Below are positions 4,424-25,378 of a stretch of 32,000 bases of DNA, one piece after another (the stretch's first letter is position 1; every line of letters starts with the position of its first letter). The translations under genes and the position numbers were made by a program. Origin of the DNA: Candidatus Saccharimonadota bacterium (lineage in GTDB: Bacteria > Patescibacteriota > Gracilibacteria > UBA1369 > 2-02-FULL-48-14); the NCBI GenBank assembly GCA_965230905.1, contig OZ246396.1, forward strand, positions 510,001 to 542,000, in the 5' to 3' direction. Below the pieces are notes generated by a model, which was not told the DNA's origin, did not search any database, and worked only from the letters and a program-made list of their open reading frames with translations.

Positions 4424-6229
4424 ATGAACAAACTTGATAAATTGTCGGAATGGCTTAGAGATGCGGTGCAGGGCGGGAGCAAGGCTCCGCTGGTTTCGCA
4501 GACCGAGCAAAAAAAACAGCACGCCGCCCAACCGGAGGCGATAAAAAAGACGCGGGGGCCGGCCATTCATCCTAAAACGCTGCGGGCTATTCCTATTGGA
4601 GGACTGGAGGAGGTGGGAAAGAACGCCATGATTTTTGAGTATGAGAACGACATTGTGGTGATTGATATGGGGTTCCAGTTCCCGGAAGATGAACTCTTTG
4701 GGGTGGACTATATTATTCCGGATATTCAGTACCTCGTGCAGCGCAAGGAGCGCATCCGGGGGATTTTGATTACGCACGGACACTTGGACCACATTGGCGC
4801 GCTTCCTTATGTACTGCCGGATTTGGGGTTCCCAACGGTGTATGGATCGCCGCTCACGCTGGGCCTCGTGCAAAAGCAGCTCGAGGAACACAAGCTGGTG
4901 AAGCACACGCGCTTTAAGGTAGTGGACAATAAACAGACGTATCAGCTCGGGGCGATGCAGGCGGAATTTTTCCGGGTGAATCACTCGATTCCGGATGCGA
5001 TGGGAATTTATTTACGCAGCCCGGCTGGAAATATTATTCACACGGGAGACTTTAAGTTTGATTTCACACCCGCCGATGGACTTGATGCCGACATTAAGAA
5101 ATTGGGCGAAATTGGGAAACGCGGAGTGAATATTTTGTTTTCGGACAGCACGGGGGCTCTTAAGCCGGGGCACACGCTTTCGGAAAGAATGGTGGCGGAG
5201 AGCCTGGAGTACGCGATCATGAACGCCAAAGGGCGCATTGTGATTGCCTCTTTTGCTTCCTTGATCGGACGCATCCAACAGATTCTACAGTTTGCTCAAA
5301 AGTATGGGCGAAAGGTGTTCCTCTCTGGGGGAAGTCTGGAGGCCAACTTTGAAATCGCGAAAAAACTTGGGTTTTTAAAATTTCCGGCCGAACTGGTGCA
5401 CAGCATTCGTGAGGTGAACAAATACGACGAGCGAAATGTGCTTATTTTGAGTACAGGGGGGCAGGGAGAGCCGATGGCGGCGCTGAGCCGCATGGCTACG
5501 AACGCTCACGCACAGGTGAAGATTCACGAGGGTGATACGGTGGTGATGTCTTCATCGCCGATTCCGGGGAATGAACGGCAGGTGCAATTTTTGGTGGACT
5601 GTCTGGCCCGCATGGGAGCGAAAGTGATCCACAACCAACTGGCCGACGTGCACGCGTCCGGGCACGGGCAGCAGGAGGATTTGAAGCTTATGATGAGCCT
5701 GGCGCGGCCGGAGCACTTGGTGCCGGTGCACGGGAACTTTTATATGCGCCGCGCGCACGGGGACTTGGTGCCGGATGTGGGAATCCCTTTAGAGAATGCG
5801 CACATGCTGGACAACGGGCACGTGATTGAGTTGAAGGATGGAAAGGTGGCGATGAAGAAAGAAGATATTAAAGTGAGGTACGTTGTGGTGGACGGGCTAG
5901 GAACGGGAGATTTGGGGTCACAGGTGCTGAAGGAGCGTGAAACCATGGCCCAGAACGGTCTGGTGAGCGTTACGATTAAGATGAGTCACGGAAAAGTGAT
6001 GGGTGCGCCTTTTATACAACTCCGTGGATTTTTGGCCGGAAAGGACATGGAAAAGAACATGAAAGAAATGGATAAAAAGGTGCGAGACAGCATTTTAAAA
6101 CTGCAGAAACGGAATGGGAAACCCAGCGTGCACGACTACGAAAATGTGATTCGCAGCGATTTAGCGGGTTACGTTGTGCAAAAGTTCAATAAACGGCCCC
6201 TGATCCTACCTGTTGTGGTGTTTATGTAG
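4424..6229 (+). CDS. rnj: ribonuclease J (metallo-beta-lactamase / beta-CASP family)
   Basis: IPIGGLEEVGKNAMIFEY, the HGHLDHIGALPY zinc motif, and beta-CASP and C-terminal domains at the typical size. It carries an extra basic N-terminal extension of about 50 aa. Confidence 0.9.
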   Translation: MNKLDKLSEWLRDAVQGGSKAPLVSQTEQKKQHAAQPEAIKKTRGPAIHPKTLRAIPIGGLEEVGKNAMIFEYENDIVVIDMGFQFPEDELFGVDYIIPDIQYLVQRKERIRGILITHGHLDHIGALPYVLPDLGFPTVYGSPLTLGLVQKQLEEHKLVKHTRFKVVDNKQTYQLGAMQAEFFRVNHSIPDAMGIYLRSPAGNIIHTGDFKFDFTPADGLDADIKKLGEIGKRGVNILFSDSTGALKPGHTLSERMVAESLEYAIMNAKGRIVIASFASLIGRIQQILQFAQKYGRKVFLSGGSLEANFEIAKKLGFLKFPAELVHSIREVNKYDERNVLILSTGGQGEPMAALSRMATNAHAQVKIHEGDTVVMSSSPIPGNERQVQFLVDCLARMGAKVIHNQLADVHASGHGQQEDLKLMMSLARPEHLVPVHGNFYMRRAHGDLVPDVGIPLENAHMLDNGHVIELKDGKVAMKKEDIKVRYVVVDGLGTGDLGSQVLKERETMAQNGLVSVTIKMSHGKVMGAPFIQLRGFLAGKDMEKNMKEMDKKVRDSILKLQKRNGKPSVHDYENVIRSDLAGYVVQKFNKRPLILPVVVFM

Positions 6230-6232
6230 GAC

Positions 6233-6309
6233 GGTGCAAAACCTTTGTGCAATTGTGCATAAGTGGTGCAAACGGGCTTTTTGCGATGTGCACAATGCGG
6301 TGTGCATAA
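6233..6309 (+). repeat. array of six same-orientation 9-mers of the form (T/G)GTGCA(A/T/C)A(A/T/C), the reverse complement of the TTATGCACA type
   Basis: GGTGCAAAA 6233-6241, TGTGCAATT 6246-6254, TGTGCATAA 6254-6262, GGTGCAAAC 6265-6273, TGTGCACAA 6287-6295, TGTGCATAA 6301-6309. Confidence 0.8.
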
Positions 6310-6392
6310 AGGGTGCTTTTGGCTTGTGAGTTTTGAATTTTTGTTTTGAAGTTTGTCAGTTTTCGAAGGGGCTTTGCAGAGGTTTTGAACTT

Positions 6393-6455
6393 TTTTGCAC
6401 GGTTTTACACGAGTTATGCACAGGTTTTCCATTTAACAGATCTAAGTTTTGCACA
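6393..6455 (+). repeat. array of four 9-mers in the opposite orientation (TTWTRCACR)
   Basis: TTTTGCACG 6393-6401, TTTTACACG 6403-6411, TTATGCACA 6414-6422, TTTTGCACA 6447-6455. The first three are spaced 10-11 bp apart. Confidence 0.75.
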
Positions 6456-6542
6456 ATTGACGGATTTGAATCTATAGAGATTGTCTACTTTAGACAGAAA
6501 AAGTGGTGAAAATACATTAAAAGTGGGGGGCAAGGCAAGGCC

Positions 6543-6600
6543 TTACTATTAATAACTACTGTTTTATATAATTAATCATTAATTAGAAAATTGCTTATAG
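6543..6600. other. AT-rich tract, candidate DNA unwinding element
   Basis: 9 G/C in 58 nt, with ATTAAT three times (6548-6553, 6571-6576, 6578-6583). It lies about 50 nt upstream of the dnaN start. Confidence 0.5.
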
Positions 6601-6647
6601 ACACATGAAAAGAAATTTGGTTTTATGGATGGGATTTCCCAACTCTT

Positions 6648-7757
6648 ATGAAACTTTCTTGCTCTCAAGCCGACCTCGCTCTGGCTCTTTCTCTGGTGAA
6701 CCGTGCGGTGAGTCCCAACAATACTTTGCCCGTACTGAATAATATTTTGGTGAAAGCGGAAGGAAAACGATTGTTTTTATGTGCGACCAATCTGGAAATT
6801 GCGATCAGTGCGTCTTTTGATGCGGATGTGCAAAACGAAGGAACGCTCACAGTTCCGGCAAAGGTTATGAGCAGTTATGTGAGTCTACTTCAGGAAACAA
6901 ATGTGGAATTGGCGGTTTTGAATGGTAATACCATGGCGGTGAAGACAGCTGGATCTGAAAGTAAGATGAAAGGAATTTCCAGTGAGGAGTTTCCTCTTTT
7001 GCCTAAACTAGACAATCCCACGGTATTTACTTTGCCGGTGGAAGAACTCAAGGCTGCTATTGAACAAGTGGTGTTTGCTGCGTCTACCAATATTTCACGG
7101 CCGGTTTTAACAGGTCTGTATTGGAAGATTGATGGGAAGACTTTGAAGCTTGTGGCCACCGACAGTTACCGATTGGGAGAGAAGACGGTGGAACTCACGG
7201 AAGCGGCCGCTGGCGACGTTTCGTTTATTGTGCCCGCTAAGACTGCGCAGGAACTTTCTAAGATTTTGGAAAGTGCTAAGGAAAAGACTTTTGAGGTGCG
7301 AATAGGTAAGGGGCAGATTTTATTTAAGGTGGGGGGAGTGGAGCTGATGAGTAGGCTTATTGAAGGGAATTTCCCGGATTACGAAAAGATTTTACCTAAG
7401 GAAATTAAGACCACCTTGGCGATTTCGAACGAAGCTTTCACCCTGGCGCTCAAAAAGCTGAGCGTGATTGTGCGAGAAAATAACAACAATGTGAAGGTGC
7501 GGAGTGAAAAGGATAAACTGCTGATTTTTAGCGACGAAACTCAGGTTGGACAGGGGGCTTGTGAGGTTCAGGCCATTGGAAACACCAGCGGCGAAATCAT
7601 TGAAACGGCGCTCAATGTGCAATACCTGCTGGACGTGCTCTCACACCTGAAAGACCCCGATGTGCATTTTGGCTTGAACGACGGACTTTCTCCTGTTATG
7701 GTAACGCCGGCCCAAGCGAGCGGGTATTTGCATATAATTATGCCGCTCAAAATTTAG
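6648..7757 (+). CDS. dnaN: DNA polymerase III beta subunit (sliding clamp)
   Basis: 369 aa. The N-terminus MKLSCSQADLALALSLVNRAVSPNNTLPVLNNILVKAEGKRLFLCATNLEIAIS is typical of DnaN, and the length fits three domains. Confidence 0.93.
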   Translation: MKLSCSQADLALALSLVNRAVSPNNTLPVLNNILVKAEGKRLFLCATNLEIAISASFDADVQNEGTLTVPAKVMSSYVSLLQETNVELAVLNGNTMAVKTAGSESKMKGISSEEFPLLPKLDNPTVFTLPVEELKAAIEQVVFAASTNISRPVLTGLYWKIDGKTLKLVATDSYRLGEKTVELTEAAAGDVSFIVPAKTAQELSKILESAKEKTFEVRIGKGQILFKVGGVELMSRLIEGNFPDYEKILPKEIKTTLAISNEAFTLALKKLSVIVRENNNNVKVRSEKDKLLIFSDETQVGQGACEVQAIGNTSGEIIETALNVQYLLDVLSHLKDPDVHFGLNDGLSPVMVTPAQASGYLHIIMPLKI

Positions 7758-7829: not shown

Positions 7830-10800
7830 GTGAAAGATTGTAAACATTTAATCAAACTCTTCCCTGCAGGACAAAACCTGAAGGTGATTGAGCAGTTCGA
7901 TCAACAAGGCTATAGCTCACTTTCAGGCAGCGGGAATTATTCGTCCAAGGCTTTTTTGATTGCCGACTTGCTCCGGGAGATTAAGGATTTGAAAAAAGTG
8001 CTGTGGATTTGCAGCGATCAGGTACACAAGGAAAACATTACTCGATCGCTTTCGCTGTGGGCGGATGCGCCGGTTTATGATTTTAATGTGGAAGAAAACC
8101 TGATGCGAGACCGAGCTTTGGAACGAAAAAACAAGGTACGGACCATGGAATTGGTTTCACTCGTTTTGCAAAAAAGTGTGACTCGGTTTTTCACTATCAT
8201 GTACAAGGATTTGTTTTTGAATTACCCCAGTGCGGTGGAAATCGAAAAGAGGATTTTGAAGGTGGCCCAAAGAGACAGTATAGACAGTGTGTCGTTTTTT
8301 GAGTCGCTCATCACCCTGGGTTACGAGGTTTCGGACGATGCGTTTGTGGAGAAGGGCGAGTACTTCCGCCAGGGAGACCTGCTCACGATTTGGCCGGTGA
8401 ACAGCGAGGCGCCGATTCGCATGGAACTGGCTTTTGACGACATTGAGCGGATTGCGATTTTTGATCAAACGACGAAGGAGGACGTGAGCGAACTCAAGGA
8501 AATTGAAATCTATCCGATTGCTGTGCCCGAGGGCGGGGTGAATTTATTGAGTTATTTTGGAAAGGGAACCTTGGTGCTGGATGACGAGGTGGAGTTCCCC
8601 GACGACGAAACCGAAAAGTTTGAGGCGGTGATGGCGGCAAGGAATCCGGAGTCGCGGTACATCGAGTTCCGCTCGTTTATGGAGGAGACGCCGTACCACC
8701 ACCATTTGCATTATTTGTCCGTGCTCAAGTACTACAACCCGCTGGATTTTATTGCGGATTTGAAGGAAAAAATGAGTCAGGATTGGACGGTGTTTTTGTT
8801 CACCAAGCATCCGGAGCTGTATCACAATTTATTTGAAGACAAGGGAATTGCTTACAGCGATTACAGCAAAGGTGAGTACCGGGGTGGGGCGGAGGTGGTG
8901 ATTTTCCCGATTGGAGTGGACGATGTTTTCCCGGAAGGTTTTCAGAATCCGGCGCTAAAATTGACGCTTATCACGGACCGAAATGTGGGGAATTTTGTGG
9001 AGACGGAAAAGAAGGCGCCGGAGCGGCAGAAGGTGTACATGGACTTTTTGACGGGACTTAAGACGGGCGACTTTGTGGTGCACAGCGACCACGGAATTGG
9101 GATCTTTTTGGGACTCGACAAGCGCACCATCGACGGGGTGACGCGTGAATATTTGAAAATTGGATACGCGGAAAACGACAAACTTTTTGTGCCGATTGAC
9201 CAGGCGGACAAGGTTTCTAAATTCATTGGATCAGGGGATAGGCCGCCGAAATTGACGCGGCTCGGAAGCGCCGAATGGACCACGGTGCAAAACCGGGTTC
9301 GCAAGGAAACGGAGAAAATTGCTCAGGAACTTTTGGAACTTTATGCGGAACGCGAAAGCGCGCGCGGGTTTATGTTTGAAGCGGATACAGCGCGCATGCT
9401 GCAGTTCGAAAAGAATTTTGAATACGAAGAAACGCCGGGTCAAACCCGCGCTATTTTGGACGTGAAGCGCGACCTCGAAGGCAAGAAGCCGATGGACCGA
9501 CTGGTGTGTGGAGATGTGGGATTTGGAAAGACCGAAGTGGCGATGCGCGCGGCCTTTAAAGCCGTGGAAGGGAAGAAGCAAGTGGCGGTGCTCGCGCCGA
9601 TCACGATTCTGGTGGACCAGCATTACAAAAACTTTAAAAAGCGTATGGAAGGATTCGATGTGCGCATTGAAATGCTCAGCCGTTTCCGCAGCCCAGCCGA
9701 GCAAAAAAAGATTCTGCGTGCGCTCGAAAAAGGTGAGATCGATATTATTATTGGAACGCACCGACTTTTGCAGGAAGATATTAAATTCAAGGACCTTGGC
9801 CTGGTGGTGATTGATGAAGAACAACGTTTTGGAGTGAAGCAAAAAGAGGCGCTCAAGAACCTGCGCAAGGAAGTGCATATTCTCACGATGACCGCGACGC
9901 CAATACCCAGAACGCTCAATATTTCGCTGCATGGACTTCGAGACATTTCTACCATCACCACGCCGCCGCCCGGACGTTTGCCGATTGTGACCGAGGTGCG
10001 CCGCTTTTCGCTGGGGCTGATTAAGAGCGTGGTTGAAAAAGAAATTGAACGCGGCGGACAAATTTACTTTTTGCACAATCGTGTGCAGACCATTGATGAC
10101 ATGGCCGCAAAACTCAAATCCTTGCTACCTAAGGCGCGCGTAGTGGTGACACACGGGAAGTTGAGGCCCGACGACTTGGAGGCCCGCATTTTGGCCTTTA
10201 AAAACGCTGAATATGACATTCTCGTTTCTTCGACAATTATTGAAAATGGAATCGACTTACCAAATGCGAATACTTTGATTGTGAACAGTGCGGAACGGTT
10301 TGGACTCGCGCAGCTTTACCAGTTACGTGGACGAGTTGGACGAAGTCGTAAGCAGGCCTATGCGTACTTTTTGTACCATATGAAGCGCTTGCCGCTGGAT
10401 GCCAAAAAGCGTCTGCGGGCGATTGTGGAGGCGAACGAACTCGGGGCGGGATTCCAAATTGCGATGAAGGATTTGGAGATTCGCGGCGCCGGAGATATTT
10501 TGGGCGCGAACCAAAGCGGCGCCATTCAAGTGGTGGGAGTTTCGCATTTTATTCGTATGCTGAACCAAGCCGTGGACGACTTGAAGAAAGGCCGAAAAGT
10601 GACCGACGAGCACACCGTGCCGGAAGTGACCATTGAAATTCCGCTGCCCGCGTACGTGCCCGACGAATATATTATTTCATCCAAAGAAAAGATTTCCGTG
10701 TACCAAAAACTCGCGAGCGCCGACACGCTGGAGTACCTCACGGAACTCCGCATGCAGCTCACGGAAGACTACGGACGCATGCCGGAAGAAGTGGCGAATT

Positions 10801-11099
10801 TGTTCCGCGTTTTGGAAATCAAGATGCTAGGAAAGAAGGCTCGCATCATCAACGTGAAGGCGGAAAATGTTCACGGTAGTGACGATCGCCAGATTGTTTT
10901 ACACATGTCTAGTCACGTTAGACCCGAAAATATTATGTCGCTACTCGACGAGAATTCTAAGTGGATTATTTCCGGAACCAAGCTAAAAATCAAGATTAAG
11001 GAGCTGGGAACGAACTGGGTGGAAGAACTTAAAAAGAGCCTCGCGGCGCTTGGCAAGAAACTCAAGAATGCGCCGGGGAGTGAGGTGGAGAAGGACTAA
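7830..11099 (+). CDS. mfd: transcription-repair coupling factor
   Basis: 1089 aa with a GTG start. CarD/RNAP-interaction-like block (GDFVVHSDHGIGIFLG...YAENDKLFVP), SF2 helicase motifs GDVGFGKTEVAMRAAF, DEEQRFGV, TATPIPRTL and QLRGRVGRS, and a TRCF C-terminal domain. Confidence 0.93.
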   Translation: MKDCKHLIKLFPAGQNLKVIEQFDQQGYSSLSGSGNYSSKAFLIADLLREIKDLKKVLWICSDQVHKENITRSLSLWADAPVYDFNVEENLMRDRALERKNKVRTMELVSLVLQKSVTRFFTIMYKDLFLNYPSAVEIEKRILKVAQRDSIDSVSFFESLITLGYEVSDDAFVEKGEYFRQGDLLTIWPVNSEAPIRMELAFDDIERIAIFDQTTKEDVSELKEIEIYPIAVPEGGVNLLSYFGKGTLVLDDEVEFPDDETEKFEAVMAARNPESRYIEFRSFMEETPYHHHLHYLSVLKYYNPLDFIADLKEKMSQDWTVFLFTKHPELYHNLFEDKGIAYSDYSKGEYRGGAEVVIFPIGVDDVFPEGFQNPALKLTLITDRNVGNFVETEKKAPERQKVYMDFLTGLKTGDFVVHSDHGIGIFLGLDKRTIDGVTREYLKIGYAENDKLFVPIDQADKVSKFIGSGDRPPKLTRLGSAEWTTVQNRVRKETEKIAQELLELYAERESARGFMFEADTARMLQFEKNFEYEETPGQTRAILDVKRDLEGKKPMDRLVCGDVGFGKTEVAMRAAFKAVEGKKQVAVLAPITILVDQHYKNFKKRMEGFDVRIEMLSRFRSPAEQKKILRALEKGEIDIIIGTHRLLQEDIKFKDLGLVVIDEEQRFGVKQKEALKNLRKEVHILTMTATPIPRTLNISLHGLRDISTITTPPPGRLPIVTEVRRFSLGLIKSVVEKEIERGGQIYFLHNRVQTIDDMAAKLKSLLPKARVVVTHGKLRPDDLEARILAFKNAEYDILVSSTIIENGIDLPNANTLIVNSAERFGLAQLYQLRGRVGRSRKQAYAYFLYHMKRLPLDAKKRLRAIVEANELGAGFQIAMKDLEIRGAGDILGANQSGAIQVVGVSHFIRMLNQAVDDLKKGRKVTDEHTVPEVTIEIPLPAYVPDEYIISSKEKISVYQKLASADTLEYLTELRMQLTEDYGRMPEEVANLFRVLEIKMLGKKARIINVKAENVHGSDDRQIVLHMSSHVRPENIMSLLDENSKWIISGTKLKIKIKELGTNWVEELKKSLAALGKKLKNAPGSEVEKD

Positions 11100-12835
11100 G
11101 CCGTGGGCTGCGCCAGTTGATTCAGGCTGTACAGCGAGCTCTGAAGTCGTGCTATTTGCTCGGCGTTGAGGCCCAGGGTTTTAGCGTTGCCAAGTGCGGT
11201 TGAGATGTCCATGGTTGTACCGGCGATGTCACGGAAAATCGGCTCACTTTTGGCTACGGCGGCCTCTGCTTTAACCGTAGCACCCTCGGTGTTTCTTACA
11301 CCGTATTCTGCTTGGTCAAGCGCTTTATGCGCCGTGTGCGCAGTGTGTTCTGCACGGTGAACTAAATGATATTTGCCATTTACGGCCTGTGCTTTTGCCA
11401 GAAGGCCCTCGGTGATTTCGGCCGCCTCGACTCCGTAGGCAGCCAAGCGAGGGAATTGCTGGAGTACTGGATTGATGGCCATGGCGAAGGTTTCAAGGCC
11501 GCGGACCGCGCCGGTTACGCGTGCAAGGCCAGCCATTTTACCGCCCACGGCACTCAAGCTCTTTACCTTAAGGAGAGCGCCCACCCCGCCTCCAATCCCG
11601 AGTCCTGCCACCATCTCTGAAGTCATACGAATAACCAAAAGTTGCATCTCCAGAGGAGTCATAGTATTTGCACCGTGTTCCACCAGCTGCTTACCCATTT
11701 TGTAGGTATCTGGTTTTAGAAGATACGGCATCACATGGATTACGTGCCCGATGGCATCTATGGGGTGCCGGAAGAAGTCCAAAGTGGCGCCGACCGCAGA
11801 GTCGACACCCCCACACGTTGCGAGTAAGTACTGTTGATTGGGGCTGAGCTGATTTACGGGTGTCCCCATGTAAACCTGCGCCGCTCCTTCGAGTGAATAA
11901 ATTTGCTTGAACCCCTCCACCGAGAGGAGATCTTTCACCATTGGCTTGTCCTGCGCGCCATGGATAAGGAAGTTGAGCATGAGGGACATTTCTTCGTCGG
12001 TCATCATCACCTCGGCGCTTGCTTCCGGATGCGCAATCATCTCTTTGTGAGCAGGATTGAATAGAACATTGCCCATCACTTGATTTAGAAGAGAATGAAC
12101 GTCGAGAGCGTCTTTGAATGTGGAAAGGAACAGGCTCTTTGCCCTTCCCGGATCCACACTTGCTTGAGCTTGAACCCTTTTAAGGGCGGCGACGATGGTG
12201 GCGCCCACATCTGCTATTTGCATGCCCGTCAAATTATAAAACTCCGTTCGGGCAGCGCCGTAAGCTCGTGAATTTTTAATATCTTCAAGCTCTGTGAGCA
12301 GTGTTTTGTTTTCCTGCTCATATCCCACCAATTTTTCGACATTGGGCTTTTGTCCCAAGGTCTCACCAATCGCCACCAAGGTGTCTGAAAGGCGATCTGG
12401 GTTGAACGTGGATTCGGGTAAAGTGGCCTGGTAAGTCTCCTGTACTTTTTGTTCCAAGCGCATTTCTTTACCGGCGGCGGAGCTTAGCTCGGTTCGCATC
12501 TCAAGCAACTGTGTACTTGCGAGGTAGGCCACGGCATCGATCTGTCCTCTTGCCGATTCACCCTCTCCAGCGGTGAGGAGATCGAACTGAAAAGCGAGAT
12601 TTTCGAGTAGGGCTTCTGGGGTATCCTCATTGTTACGCTGCACGTCCAAGAAGTTTTCCTTCACCCCTTCATAAATGCCCATTTGCTTGTAGCTCCCAAT
12701 GGCTCCACGGATGGCCCTTTCAGACTCCACGATTTCTATCTTACGGCTCACCGAAAGATCCATTTCAGCTTTATTGACTCGGCCTTCTGCCGACGTCATT
12801 GCGTCGCTCACCGTTCTAGGTTTTTCAGGTGCCAT
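11096..12835 (-). CDS. hypothetical protein (579 aa): helical, coiled-coil-like N-terminal half and a Gly-rich hydrophobic segment near the C-terminal third
   Basis: Long ORF whose ATG overlaps the upstream gene's stop (TAATG). Contains MVAGLGIGGGVGALLKVKSLSAVGGKMAGLARVTGAV and an HTAHTAH run. No signal peptide and no family I recognise. Confidence 0.6.
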   Translation of the reverse strand: MAPEKPRTVSDAMTSAEGRVNKAEMDLSVSRKIEIVESERAIRGAIGSYKQMGIYEGVKENFLDVQRNNEDTPEALLENLAFQFDLLTAGEGESARGQIDAVAYLASTQLLEMRTELSSAAGKEMRLEQKVQETYQATLPESTFNPDRLSDTLVAIGETLGQKPNVEKLVGYEQENKTLLTELEDIKNSRAYGAARTEFYNLTGMQIADVGATIVAALKRVQAQASVDPGRAKSLFLSTFKDALDVHSLLNQVMGNVLFNPAHKEMIAHPEASAEVMMTDEEMSLMLNFLIHGAQDKPMVKDLLSVEGFKQIYSLEGAAQVYMGTPVNQLSPNQQYLLATCGGVDSAVGATLDFFRHPIDAIGHVIHVMPYLLKPDTYKMGKQLVEHGANTMTPLEMQLLVIRMTSEMVAGLGIGGGVGALLKVKSLSAVGGKMAGLARVTGAVRGLETFAMAINPVLQQFPRLAAYGVEAAEITEGLLAKAQAVNGKYHLVHRAEHTAHTAHKALDQAEYGVRNTEGATVKAEAAVAKSEPIFRDIAGTTMDISTALGNAKTLGLNAEQIARLQSSLYSLNQLAQPTA

Positions 12836-22996: not shown

Positions 22997-25378
22997 ATGA
23001 AAATTGCACTCATTTGTGGCGGACCGTCCATGGAACGCGGCATTTCTCTCAACTCGGCGCGGAGCGTCCTGAATCATTTGGAAGGGGACGGAATTGAAAT
23101 TGTGCCGGTGTATTTTGATTATAAAAAACGGCCTTACCATTTGCTCACGTCGCAGCTTTATTCCAACACGCCTTCGGACTTTGATTTTAAACTCCGTGAG
23201 ACGGCAAAATTTTTAAGCCAGACTGCGCTGAAGAACTTGCTAAAAAGTTGTAACATCGCCTTCCCGGTGATGCACGGACAGTTTGGGGAAGACGGCGGAA
23301 TTCAGCGTTTATTGGAACGTTTTAAGGTGCCGTACGTGGGCGCCGATATTGAGGCCTGCAAGCGTTGGGACAAACATGTGGCCAATGAGTTTATTCGCGA
23401 AAATGGATTTTATGCGCCGCCCTGTGCGCTACTCAAAATCAATCAGGACGATCATAGGGAAATTATTGACGCGTTTTTTAAAGAGCACAAAATCAAGCGA
23501 GCCGTGGTGAAACCGGCGAGCGGGGGTTCCAGCATTGGAGTGTACTCCGTGGAAACGCCCGCGCAGGCACTGGAAAAAGCCAAGCTCTTGTTTAGCCGCC
23601 GCATGGACACTCGCGTTGTGGTGGAACCCTTCAGTACGGGCGTGGAATTCACGGTGATTATTTTGCAGAACCGCTTCAATATGCCGGTGGCCATTTTGCC
23701 CACGGAGATCGAAACGGATTACCAGAAAAACCAGATCTTTGATTTTAGGAAAAAATATTTGCCCACGCGGCAAGTGCGTTACCACTGCCCACCGCGTTTT
23801 AGCAACGAAGACATTGAGCGTATTCAAGTGCAGGCCGAGCAACTTTTCAAAATCATGGGCATGCGTGACTTTGCCCGCTTCGATGGGTGGCTGATGCCGG
23901 ATGGGAAAATTTGGTTTTCGGATTTCAATCCCATTAGTGGAATGGAGCAGAACAGCTTTTTGTTTCAGCAGACTGCGCGTATTGGATTCAGTCACCGGGA
24001 CCTTTTGTATTATGTGGTGAAGCACGCGGCGGACCGTTATGGAATTGCGATGCCGCCCAAGCGCGAGCCTTCGCAGGTTAAACGCAAGCCGGTGAATGTT
24101 TTGTTTGGGGGAAATACTTCCGAGCGGCAGGTTTCGGTGATGAGTGGAACCAACGCGTGGCTCAAACTACGGCGCAGTGAAAAGTACGCGCCTCGGCCTT
24201 ATTTTTTGGATTTGAACGGGGAGGTGTGGGAAGTGCCTTATGCGCTCACGCTCAACCACACGGCGGAGGAAATTTTAGAAAATTGTGAGGGGGCGGAAGA
24301 TAGCGAAAAACGCCTACGCTTTTTGGAAGAAAAAGTGCGGCTGCGGCTGGCTTTGGAAGTGGGCGATACCAGCGAGCCTTTCTTTATTCCGCGCAAAATG
24401 AGTCTGCAGGAATTTATAAAGCAGAGCCGTTTTGTTCTGCTGGGTCTGCATGGCGGGATCGGTGAAGATGGAACTTTGCAGCGCATGCTCACGAAGGCCG
24501 GCGTGAAGTTCAACGGGCCCAGCGCAGAGACTTCGGAGATTTGTATGGATAAGGCAGAAACAGGGAAACGCCTCGCGGGCCTGGAGAAATTCGGCATTTT
24601 TGTAGCGCCCAAGCACACGGCCCGGGCAACGGAATTTAAGGGCTTTAAAGTCAAGGACTTCGATGAATATTTCGCAAAGCTACAGAAGAAACTCGGCGCA
24701 AAAACCGTGATTGTGAAACCGCAGGACGAGGGATGTTCTTCCGGAATTGTGCGGCTCTTTAGCGCTAAAGATTTGCAAAACTATATGCACTTGGTGCTGG
24801 CCAATGCCACGCAGATTCCCCCCGGGACTTTCACCAATCAAAGCACGCCCATTGAGATGCCCCTGCAGACCATGGATAAACTTTTGTTCGAACAATTCAT
24901 TGAAGTGGATACCGTGCGGGTGAAAGGAAACCGGCTCAAATGGAAACGTAAAAAAGGGTGGGTGGAAGTGACGGTGGGCGTGATTCAAGATGAAAATCAT
25001 CTCTACCACGAGGGCACTTTGCATGCACTGAGCCCGAGTCTCACGGTTGCGGAAGGCGAAGTGCTTTCGGTGGAAGAAAAATTTCAAGGAGGAACCGGCG
25101 TGAATATGACGCCTCCGCCCGAAAGCCATGTGAAGCCTGCGGTGCTGGCGCGCGTTAAAAAATCCATTGAAAAAGTGAGTGAGGTGCTGGGCATTGAAGG
25201 CTACAGCCGTCTCGACGCGTTCATTCAAATCGACACCGGTGACATTATTTTGATTGAAGTAAATACGCTGCCGGCGCTCACGCCGTCCACGGTTTTGTTT
25301 CATCAAGGCTTGGCGGAAAAGAAGCCCGTGTATCCGCTGGAACTTTTGGAGAAAATCGTGGAGAATAAGGGCTATTAG
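22997..25378 (+). CDS. ddl: tandem fusion of two D-alanine--D-alanine ligase-like ATP-grasp modules (793 aa)
   Basis: Module 1 (about 22997-24050): KIALICGGPSMERGISLNSA, FPVMHGQFGEDGGIQRLLE, VVKPASGGSSIG, ARFDGW...FSDFNPISGM. Module 2 (about 24080-25375): VNVLFGGNTSERQVSVMSG, LLGLHGGIGEDGTLQRML, VIVKPQDEGCSSGI, SRLDAF...LIEVNTLPALT. Confidence 0.85.
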   Translation: MKIALICGGPSMERGISLNSARSVLNHLEGDGIEIVPVYFDYKKRPYHLLTSQLYSNTPSDFDFKLRETAKFLSQTALKNLLKSCNIAFPVMHGQFGEDGGIQRLLERFKVPYVGADIEACKRWDKHVANEFIRENGFYAPPCALLKINQDDHREIIDAFFKEHKIKRAVVKPASGGSSIGVYSVETPAQALEKAKLLFSRRMDTRVVVEPFSTGVEFTVIILQNRFNMPVAILPTEIETDYQKNQIFDFRKKYLPTRQVRYHCPPRFSNEDIERIQVQAEQLFKIMGMRDFARFDGWLMPDGKIWFSDFNPISGMEQNSFLFQQTARIGFSHRDLLYYVVKHAADRYGIAMPPKREPSQVKRKPVNVLFGGNTSERQVSVMSGTNAWLKLRRSEKYAPRPYFLDLNGEVWEVPYALTLNHTAEEILENCEGAEDSEKRLRFLEEKVRLRLALEVGDTSEPFFIPRKMSLQEFIKQSRFVLLGLHGGIGEDGTLQRMLTKAGVKFNGPSAETSEICMDKAETGKRLAGLEKFGIFVAPKHTARATEFKGFKVKDFDEYFAKLQKKLGAKTVIVKPQDEGCSSGIVRLFSAKDLQNYMHLVLANATQIPPGTFTNQSTPIEMPLQTMDKLLFEQFIEVDTVRVKGNRLKWKRKKGWVEVTVGVIQDENHLYHEGTLHALSPSLTVAEGEVLSVEEKFQGGTGVNMTPPPESHVKPAVLARVKKSIEKVSEVLGIEGYSRLDAFIQIDTGDIILIEVNTLPALTPSTVLFHQGLAEKKPVYPLELLEKIVENKGY

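Follow-up and report, generated by a model that had tools for sequence, protein, structure and literature searches.

An origin-like cluster of DnaA boxes upstream of dnaN, conserved among Peribacteria and without a local switch in GC skew

Introduction

Replication origins linked to dnaN, with dnaA located elsewhere, are known in Synechococcus elongatus and Prochlorococcus, where they contain TTTTNCACA-type boxes and coincide with an extremum of GC skew or of marker frequency. In the classical dnaA-dnaN intergenic origin of Bacillus subtilis, the basal unwinding system (BUS) at incC combines DnaA-boxes 6 and 7 with DnaA-trios and an AT-rich region. The R1/DUE arrangement of Escherichia coli gives an orientation rule for such elements, in which a box reading TTATCCACA on the top strand has its trios downstream, and the trios on that same strand read NTN, ideally CTA.

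Dense clusters of DnaA boxes also occur away from replichore boundaries, and include E. coli datA and the B. subtilis DnaA-box clusters, which to our knowledge have neither an adjacent trio-like element nor an extreme AT tract. Pseudomonas oriCII, located upstream of gidA and conserved across families, can drive replication of a plasmid but is not required for initiation on the chromosome, and it controls the neighbouring operon through DnaA (PMC13438810).

Departures from two-way replication have been described as well. Complete genomes of the order UBA1400, within the Candidate Phyla Radiation (CPR), have a monotonic cumulative GC skew, for which the authors proposed either an adjacent origin and terminus or unidirectional theta replication, and in DciA-depleted Vibrio cholerae initiation at a DnaA origin is one-way, with the direction set by the orientation of the origin. 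A published Peribacteria genome has a normal V-shaped GC skew, with dnaA (616 kb) and dnaN (1,075 kb) separated by 459 kb and with no intergenic room beside dnaA.

Here, we describe an intergenic gap immediately upstream of dnaN in a 32,000-nucleotide stretch of a bacterial chromosome (the window), which a first-pass annotation had proposed to be an oriC. That proposal stands in so far as the gap contains a conserved, non-random cluster of DnaA boxes, an AT tract and a classical layout; the switch in GC skew that should accompany an origin is locally missing. We compare the element with its counterparts in related genomes, and weigh a retained origin-like DnaA site against an active origin and a promoter.

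Materials and Methods

The window forms part of a contig of 1,307,106 bp from a Hainich groundwater metagenome (ena:ERZ1292638 NODE_1), with window position 1 at about position 739,338 and the gap at about 745,567-745,984 of that contig. Eighty dnaN-centred loci, designated here by L numbers, were collected in one scan of species-representative genomes. The close clade is defined as 22 loci with the order RNase J, gap, dnaN, mfd and with DnaN identities of 56-93%. A metagenome scan for two boxes at a 33-bp spacing added five Peribacteria loci (L097, L110, L119, L120 and L121) among the matches listed, most of which were chance or tandem repeats. We searched for dnaA by tblastn using a B. subtilis DnaA sequence as the probe. 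GC skew was followed through 41 kb around the gap, from about -15 to +25 kb, with the additional left flank taken from L003. In the distant clade four-fold sites were used in place of third codon positions, because Lys/Glu-rich proteins (e.g. RNase Y) confound third-position skew.

Results

Organization of the gap upstream of dnaN

The local gene order is def(-), prfB(-), flippase(+), RNase J(+), the gap, dnaN(+) and mfd(+), and the DnaN homologues place the organism within the Peribacteria/Peregrinibacteria group of the CPR. The features of the gap are listed in Table 1. Fifteen of the 16 motif coordinates in the first-pass annotation are exact, the exception being position 6359, which had been read as GTTTTGAA; the two copies of AAAAGTGG are among those correctly placed.

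Table 1. Positions of the genes and sequence features at the dnaN-linked element, numbered within the window
Feature	Position	Strand	Description
RNase J gene	4424-6229	+	
Gap	6230-6647		418 nt
Left DnaA-box array	6233-6309	- (TTWTNCACA on minus strand)	6233, 6246, 6254 (perfect), 6265, 6287, 6301 (perfect)
T-rich stretch with GTTTTGAA-type repeats	6330-6390	+	6330, 6343, 6382; 6359 is GTTTTCGA
Right DnaA-box array	6393-6455	+	6393 and 6403 (one mismatch each), 6414 TTATGCACA (box B), 6447 TTTTGCACA (box C)
Spacer	6456-6524		Length and sequence differ among relatives; holds an inverted repeat and AAAAGTGG twice (6499, 6519)
G run then GCAAGGCAAGGCC	6525-6542	+	Clade consensus G run + TTGRCAAGG
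DnaA-trio-like repeats	6543-6564	-	Top strand TTA CTA TTA ATA (A) CTA CTG TTT
AT-rich tract, candidate DNA-unwinding element	6543-6600		Lowest stability in the 32-kb window
dnaN-proximal block	6595-6647	+	DnaA-box-like TTATAGACA (6595-6603, contains TAGACA), then conserved AAATTTG-TT--AT (to 6632)
dnaN (sliding clamp)	6648-7757	+	mfd (7830-11099) always next

The boxes form two opposed arrays, the leftward-facing ones filling the left part of the gap. The left-array boxes at 6254 and 6287 are 33 bp apart, forming a mirror image of the right-hand pair, boxes B and C, which are also 33 bp apart, are invariant in the clade and have a conserved TTTAACAGATCTAAG (6432-6446) between them. Most close relatives have leftward-facing boxes at the corresponding place, and in the right array the sites at 6393 and 6403 are spaced 10 and 11 bp from the next box. 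The GTTTTGAA-type repeats are probably weak plus-strand DnaA sites of the same orientation; in distant relatives the tandem boxes are TTTTGAACA and TTTTAAACA, and TTTTGAACA-type sites are the main boxes. An 87-aa open reading frame on the minus strand (6169-6432) crosses the left array, has no family match, is absent as a gene from public records, and is probably spurious.

The inverted repeat within the spacer is TGTCTA-CTT-TAGACA (6482-6496). The G/C-rich patch that follows may be a very degenerate proximal box; four positions of the clade alignment within it (G155, C157, A158 and A159) are invariant or nearly so, and relatives have TTTTGGAAA or TTTTGTAAA followed by CCCC in its place. The dnaN-proximal block, which in several relatives includes a perfect TGTGCAWAA, is probably the promoter or leader of dnaN and would contain a separate operator for DnaA. 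A sigma-70 promoter scan of the gap returned one weak match that is not above chance, and an Rfam search of the gap gave no credible match. The conserved TTGRCAAG...TACTA block was considered as a promoter and rejected, as it did not fit normal spacing. Elsewhere in the window, 22997-25378 (+) codes for a 793-aa protein in which the N- and C-terminal domains of D-Ala-D-Ala ligase are both present twice, making it a tandem duplication or fusion of Ddl.

Enrichment of DnaA boxes and the AT-rich tract

The window contains 11 perfect matches to TTWTNCACA, the standard relaxed DnaA-box consensus (PMC13438810), where 3.0 are expected, and none of 100 shuffles reached that number. Four are in 6254-6455 and two more lie just within the flanking genes (6175 and 6827). 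The density of perfect boxes is 17.3 per kb in 6230-6460 versus 0.22 per kb elsewhere in the window, a difference of about 80-fold. When one mismatch is allowed there are 8 boxes in 231 nt, against a maximum of 6 per window of that size in 200 Markov simulations, and the cluster has P = 0.0005 relative to simulations of the gap's own composition. The predicted concentration of the 9-mer at the gap is thus confirmed within the window. To describe it as a variant, lineage-specific box was an overstatement, since TTATGCACA conforms to TTWTNCACA; the box that does not vary within the clade is TTTTGCACA.

The AT tract has 9 G/C in 58 nt, as originally counted, and is both the most AT-rich and the least stable 58-60-mer in the window. 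Its dG of -61 (the next best is -68) is 4.8 sd from the window mean of -85.9 (sd 5.2), and it is predicted to be the adjacent, easily melted AT-rich element of an oriC.

CTA repeats and their relationship to DnaA-trios

The strand on which trios should lie was checked using an unrelated metagenomic dnaA-dnaN locus (L142/L183), which conforms to the E. coli orientation rule. This textbook origin of a low-GC lineage (L142 3,751-3,900; L183 532-680), our reference for box and trio orientation, has boxes in the order GTTTTGCACA, 33 bp, TTATGCACA, TTATCAACA and AATCCACAG, followed by CCCC, CTA CTA CTA TTA CTA CTA, an AT tract, a Shine-Dalgarno sequence and dnaN. In the 270 nt before dnaN at 75 related loci, CTACTA is present 42 times on the top strand and 3 times on the bottom strand, against an expectation there of about 1.6, and before dnaN at 75 loci the corresponding counts for ACTACT are 53 and 5. 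The repeats are therefore on the strand dictated by box orientation, and in the gap their bottom strand reads 3'-AAT GAT AAT TAT-5'.

The published search rule calls for a box with at most two mismatches located 0-16 bp from three or more NAN trios (PMC8287927). No qualifying box occurs within 16 bp of the main CTA-type run (6543-6564), which falls outside this rule because box C is about 88 bp upstream. The sole formal match to the BUS rule in the gap is TTATAGACA at 6595, followed after 13 bp by TTG GTT TTA, and L047, L082 and L033 have a two-mismatch box beside the repeats. We refer to the repeats at 6543-6564, which resemble DnaA-trios, as trio-like rather than as proven DnaA-trios.

Conservation among related genomes

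Conservation of the region in relatives, which the first-pass annotation had put forward as a check on its proposal, is seen in at least 27 related Peribacteria. These genomes have in common two invariant boxes 33 bp apart, box arrays that oppose each other, a patch rich in G, CTA repeats specific to one strand, and an AT tract, a layout that is classical for a dnaA-dnaN origin except that dnaA is missing. Each of the 22 close loci has the pair of boxes with a 33-bp spacing, and every distant locus lacks it. In the clade module, shared by the 22 close loci and the five from metagenomes, a weak box (TTTTnCACG) is followed 11 bp on by an invariant GTTTTGCACA and then, 33 bp later and across a conserved TTTAACAGATTAAAG, by TTTTGCACA, which is likewise invariant; from there a spacer that varies, at about 85-100 bp, leads to a G run plus TTGRCAAGG, to YTA CTA ... 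CTA CTG TTT, and to the AT tract. The homologous element of the distant clade comprises tandem boxes, a G/C patch, CTA repeats and an AT tract. All five metagenome loci of Peribacteria are upstream of dnaN, and no second context was found among the matches listed.

Two relatives, L011 and L119, have insertions of 400-680 bp that split the box/AT module from the dnaN-proximal block. The block stays with the dnaN start codon, and the module remains intact after the separation, showing that it is an independent unit. The insertion sites are at 9,560-9,840 in L011 (about 400 bp) and downstream of 1,800 in L119 (about 680 bp), and the L011 insert apparently contains a small minus-strand ORF.

Different clades have different genes to the left of the element, which identifies its left edge as a recurrent rearrangement point. 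In L010 (5077-7620, minus strand), and also in L012, L013 and L018, an 850-aa MurD-type ligase fusion lies directly left of RNase J; it includes additional domains (PF26298/PF26299), which some sources label Glu epimerase, and is widespread in the CPR. Among the best 120 matches listed, neither this fusion nor chorismate synthase, both of which are neighbours of dnaN in relatives only, had an orthologue on the source contig.

Other types of repeat were also encountered. Two JGI metagenome contigs, L188 (about 10,900-11,327) and L109 (1-300), have long tandem arrays of a 17-bp unit, CCTTGTTATGCACAAG, that contains a perfect DnaA box, giving 14-25 perfect boxes per 600 bp. Similar arrays occur in L100 (12-bp unit CTTTTTGCACA) and L193 (16-17-bp units ending in TTTTACACA or TTTTGCACA), and these might be DnaA-titrating arrays or iterons. 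The two-box pattern also retrieved arrays with a 66-bp period and units starting with GTTTTGCACAGAACA (L090 11,847-12,087; also L086 and L170), which look like tandem or CRISPR-like repeats with no relation to dnaN.

Linkage to dnaA and dnaN

The first-pass annotation reported that no dnaA gene flanks the gap, and we agree: tblastn gave no match across the window and the adjoining 9 kb on the left (L003), and all 80 related genomes likewise lacked a match within 10 kb of dnaN. As a positive control, dnaA was recovered with this probe from unrelated loci. Of the two genes to which an oriC is commonly linked, the element thus has dnaN directly downstream. Placing the origin of Peribacter riflensis from its published gene table was tried and abandoned, the gene-strand bias being too weak (56-77% on one strand).

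GC skew in this genome and the close clade

The raw GC skew in 1-kb bins is positive throughout the region from -9 kb to +32 kb, with the exception of 11,828-12,827 (-0.04), and the cumulative curve over 41 kb has no minimum at the gap. Third-position skew, expressed in the plus-strand sense, is positive on both flanks in genes of either orientation. For example, def and prfB – minus-strand genes 3.4-5.8 kb to the left – are each +0.40 at third codon positions, and RNase J has a third-position skew of +0.34 and a four-fold skew of +0.54. At four-fold sites generally, the left flank has a skew of +0.27 in plus-strand and +0.31 in minus-strand genes, and the right flank +0.29 and +0.30, respectively. 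The asymmetry is a property of the chromosome strand, not of transcription, and it is unchanged at the element.

A GC-skew switch near 6.3 kb had been named beforehand as the observation on which the origin call depended. None is present locally (-15 to +25 kb), where skew is equally positive on both flanks and the gap does not coincide with a minimum. This is not peculiar to the one genome, as the left flank is significantly positive in 19 of 22 close relatives, from which it follows that the element is not a boundary between oppositely replicated arms in this lineage. L011, one of the 19, has an extreme skew of 0.68 on the left and 0.76 on the right. Asymmetry in L011 (raw GC skew 0.29-0.39; four-fold 0.7-0.8) and L042 (0.89 at four-fold sites) is similar in size to the published G/C disparity of the UBA1400 genomes.

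GC skew in more distant relatives

More distant relatives behave differently from one another. Four-fold skew on the left and right flanks, respectively, is -0.26 and +0.13 in L065, -0.21 and +0.37 in L038, -0.16 and +0.36 in L046, -0.11 and +0.35 in L029, -0.14 and +0.15 in L061, -0.26 and +0.04 in L077, and -0.40 and 0.00 in L060. L025, the deepest member of the close clade, also has a sign change (-0.17 left, +0.12 right), and in six genomes the minimum of the raw cumulative curve lies 95-343 bp ahead of the start of dnaN. The presence of a sign change at the homologous element in several distant relatives indicates that the element is, or was, an origin in the class. Many other related genomes have positive skew on both flanks, and in a large group of relatives negative skew is confined to a 4-5-kb block before dnaN, beyond which positive skew resumes. 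The relation of the element to the replication arms thus varies between lineages.

The negative block, present in L044, L036, L039, L038, L052, L048, L032 and L070, corresponds to minus-strand genes for RNase Y, YtxH, VanW and sometimes a pentapeptide-repeat protein, from -4.8 to -0.3 kb of dnaN. Its four-fold skew is opposite to that of every other nearby minus-strand gene, and beyond it are plus-strand TPR, PSP1, holB and Mur ligase genes with positive skew; a short leftward-replicated zone and a transcription effect are both possible causes. L051 is the only locus with both flanks negative at four-fold sites (-0.21 and -0.47), which puts its dnaN on the C-rich strand, apparently head-on to replication.

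Discussion

The dnaN-linked element resembles several known systems and differs from each. Like the classical dnaA-dnaN origin with incC in B. subtilis, it has, just upstream of dnaN, co-oriented boxes facing a G/C patch, CTA-type repeats (3'-GAT-5' on the other strand) and an AT tract; the unrelated L142/L183 locus has the same two boxes 33 bp apart, and then CCCC-(CTA)n-AT. It differs from classical origins in having no dnaA at its left, in having no skew switch, and in the distance of about 88 bp from its nearest good box to the repeats, as compared with the 0-16 bp of the published rule. The origins of S. elongatus and Prochlorococcus are similar in placing a cluster of TTTTNCACA-type boxes directly upstream of dnaN without an adjacent dnaA, although the element here is off the skew extremum in this genome and in its close clade.

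Resemblances to non-origin sites are also evident, in that the element is a dense group of intergenic DnaA boxes outside a replichore boundary and beside a regulated gene, as are E. coli datA and the B. subtilis clusters. With Pseudomonas oriCII it shares an origin-like, conserved box cluster with the TTWTNCACA consensus next to a cell-cycle operon; however, oriCII is within 10-20 kb of the true origin and its function was established by experiment, whereas the element here is known from sequence alone. The UBA1400 genomes (Microgenomates) belong to the same radiation of small-genome bacteria and likewise have one strand that is G-rich irrespective of gene orientation, but that pattern is of whole closed genomes with no mapped origin, and ours is of 41 kb around a candidate origin.

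We suggest that the gap is an oriC-type site for DnaA assembly that could open DNA, and that it is probably not a two-way origin in this genome. It appears to descend from a classical dnaA-dnaN origin, dnaA having since moved elsewhere. The reading that we tentatively favour, with confidence a little short of even, is that it is now a retained and unused origin-like DnaA site, the true origin being elsewhere. DnaA would occupy the two invariant high-affinity boxes (6414 and 6447), and would extend from there across the weaker, phased boxes as well as the opposed array on the left, with a second, dnaN-proximal box at 6595 lying within the probable promoter. The site would serve as a DnaA-sensing or DnaA-titrating locus beside dnaN-mfd, forks arriving from the left would replicate it passively, and the active origin would be more than 15 kb away. 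DnaA binding, DNA opening, a regulatory or titrating role, and the silence of the element are all things that we infer from its sequence.

In favour of a retained site are the uniform strand composition across the element and the presence of DnaA-box-like sites in the dnaN-proximal block itself; base rates also favour skew over box clusters for locating an origin, and oriCII is a precedent for an origin-competent site that initiation on the chromosome does not need. Against it, the whole layout is strongly constrained in at least 27 genomes, and it is not obvious why so much would be kept at a site where DNA never opens. The module is intact in L011 and L119 despite being cut off from dnaN, which speaks against regulation of dnaN as its sole role, a genuine change in the sign of the skew falls exactly at the homologous element in several distant relatives, and no alternative origin was seen in the 41 kb around the element.

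Nearly level with this reading, and only slightly less probable, is an active chromosomal origin from which replication is effectively one-way. Initiation might establish a rightward fork alone, running from the AT tract to dnaN, or origin and terminus might lie side by side; a single fork would then copy nearly the whole chromosome and reach the left flank in the same direction. The complete and strongly conserved origin layout is what such an origin would have, with boxes that face the AT tract, CTA repeats on the DnaA-trio strand, and a module that is independent of the dnaN promoter, and the homologous element is at a skew sign change in L065, L077, L060, L038, L046, L029, L061 and L025. 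There is a precedent in the same radiation in the monotonic skew of UBA1400, to which the raw skew of L011 is similar, and one-way initiation has been demonstrated in DciA-depleted V. cholerae. It is harmful in V. cholerae, however, and the published Peribacteria genome has a normal V-shaped skew. A dif-like site, sought near the element as a sign of an adjacent terminus, was not found. One-way replication is also an extraordinary claim to make from a local pattern (41 kb) that passive replication explains equally well. In its broader form – that a whole clade of Peribacteria replicates its chromosome of about 1.3 Mb essentially one way from an intact dnaN-linked oriC, and sister lineages with the homologous origin replicate both ways – we give the proposal the same probability, somewhat below even.

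We consider it very unlikely that the site is an ordinary two-way origin in this lineage. The sequence layout and its conservation would suit one, and the recurrent rearrangement point at the left edge, where neighbours differ between clades, offers a means by which a rearranged or recently acquired left flank could mask the skew switch. We give this little credence, since RNase J adjoins the element in every member of the close clade, where DnaN identity falls as low as 56%, and this adjacency is as old as the clade; recent rearrangement cannot explain the uniform skew, as four-fold sites would have re-equilibrated, and the skew is equal on both flanks and present in RNase J itself. Least probable of all is that the gap is only a dnaN promoter or leader, with a UP-like AT element and with boxes that are simple operators of no origin ancestry. 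Such a role accords with the TAGACA -35-like hexamer and box-like sites of the conserved dnaN-proximal block, and with the clear TATAAT found 25-45 nt before the start codon in distant relatives. It accounts poorly for some 14 box-like sites in two opposed arrays, far above the need of an operator, for the separation of an intact box/AT module from the promoter block in L011 and L119, and for the recurrence of the two-box 33-bp geometry with CCCC, (CTA)n and an AT tract in the unrelated dnaA-dnaN origin of L142/L183.

Either of the leading outcomes departs from the textbook. If the element is a working origin, the unchanging skew across it would connect the strand disparity seen in some CPR genomes with replication that runs one way from a defined site; were this to hold for a whole clade of Peribacteria, it would be the first mapped origin tied to a monotonic CPR GC skew, and would provide a natural contrast between one-way and two-way initiation. 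If instead it is a silent but preserved origin, the Peribacteria would join Pseudomonas in keeping a second origin-competent DnaA site for regulation, and would serve as a warning against calling origins in uncultivated bacteria from DnaA boxes and dnaN linkage alone.
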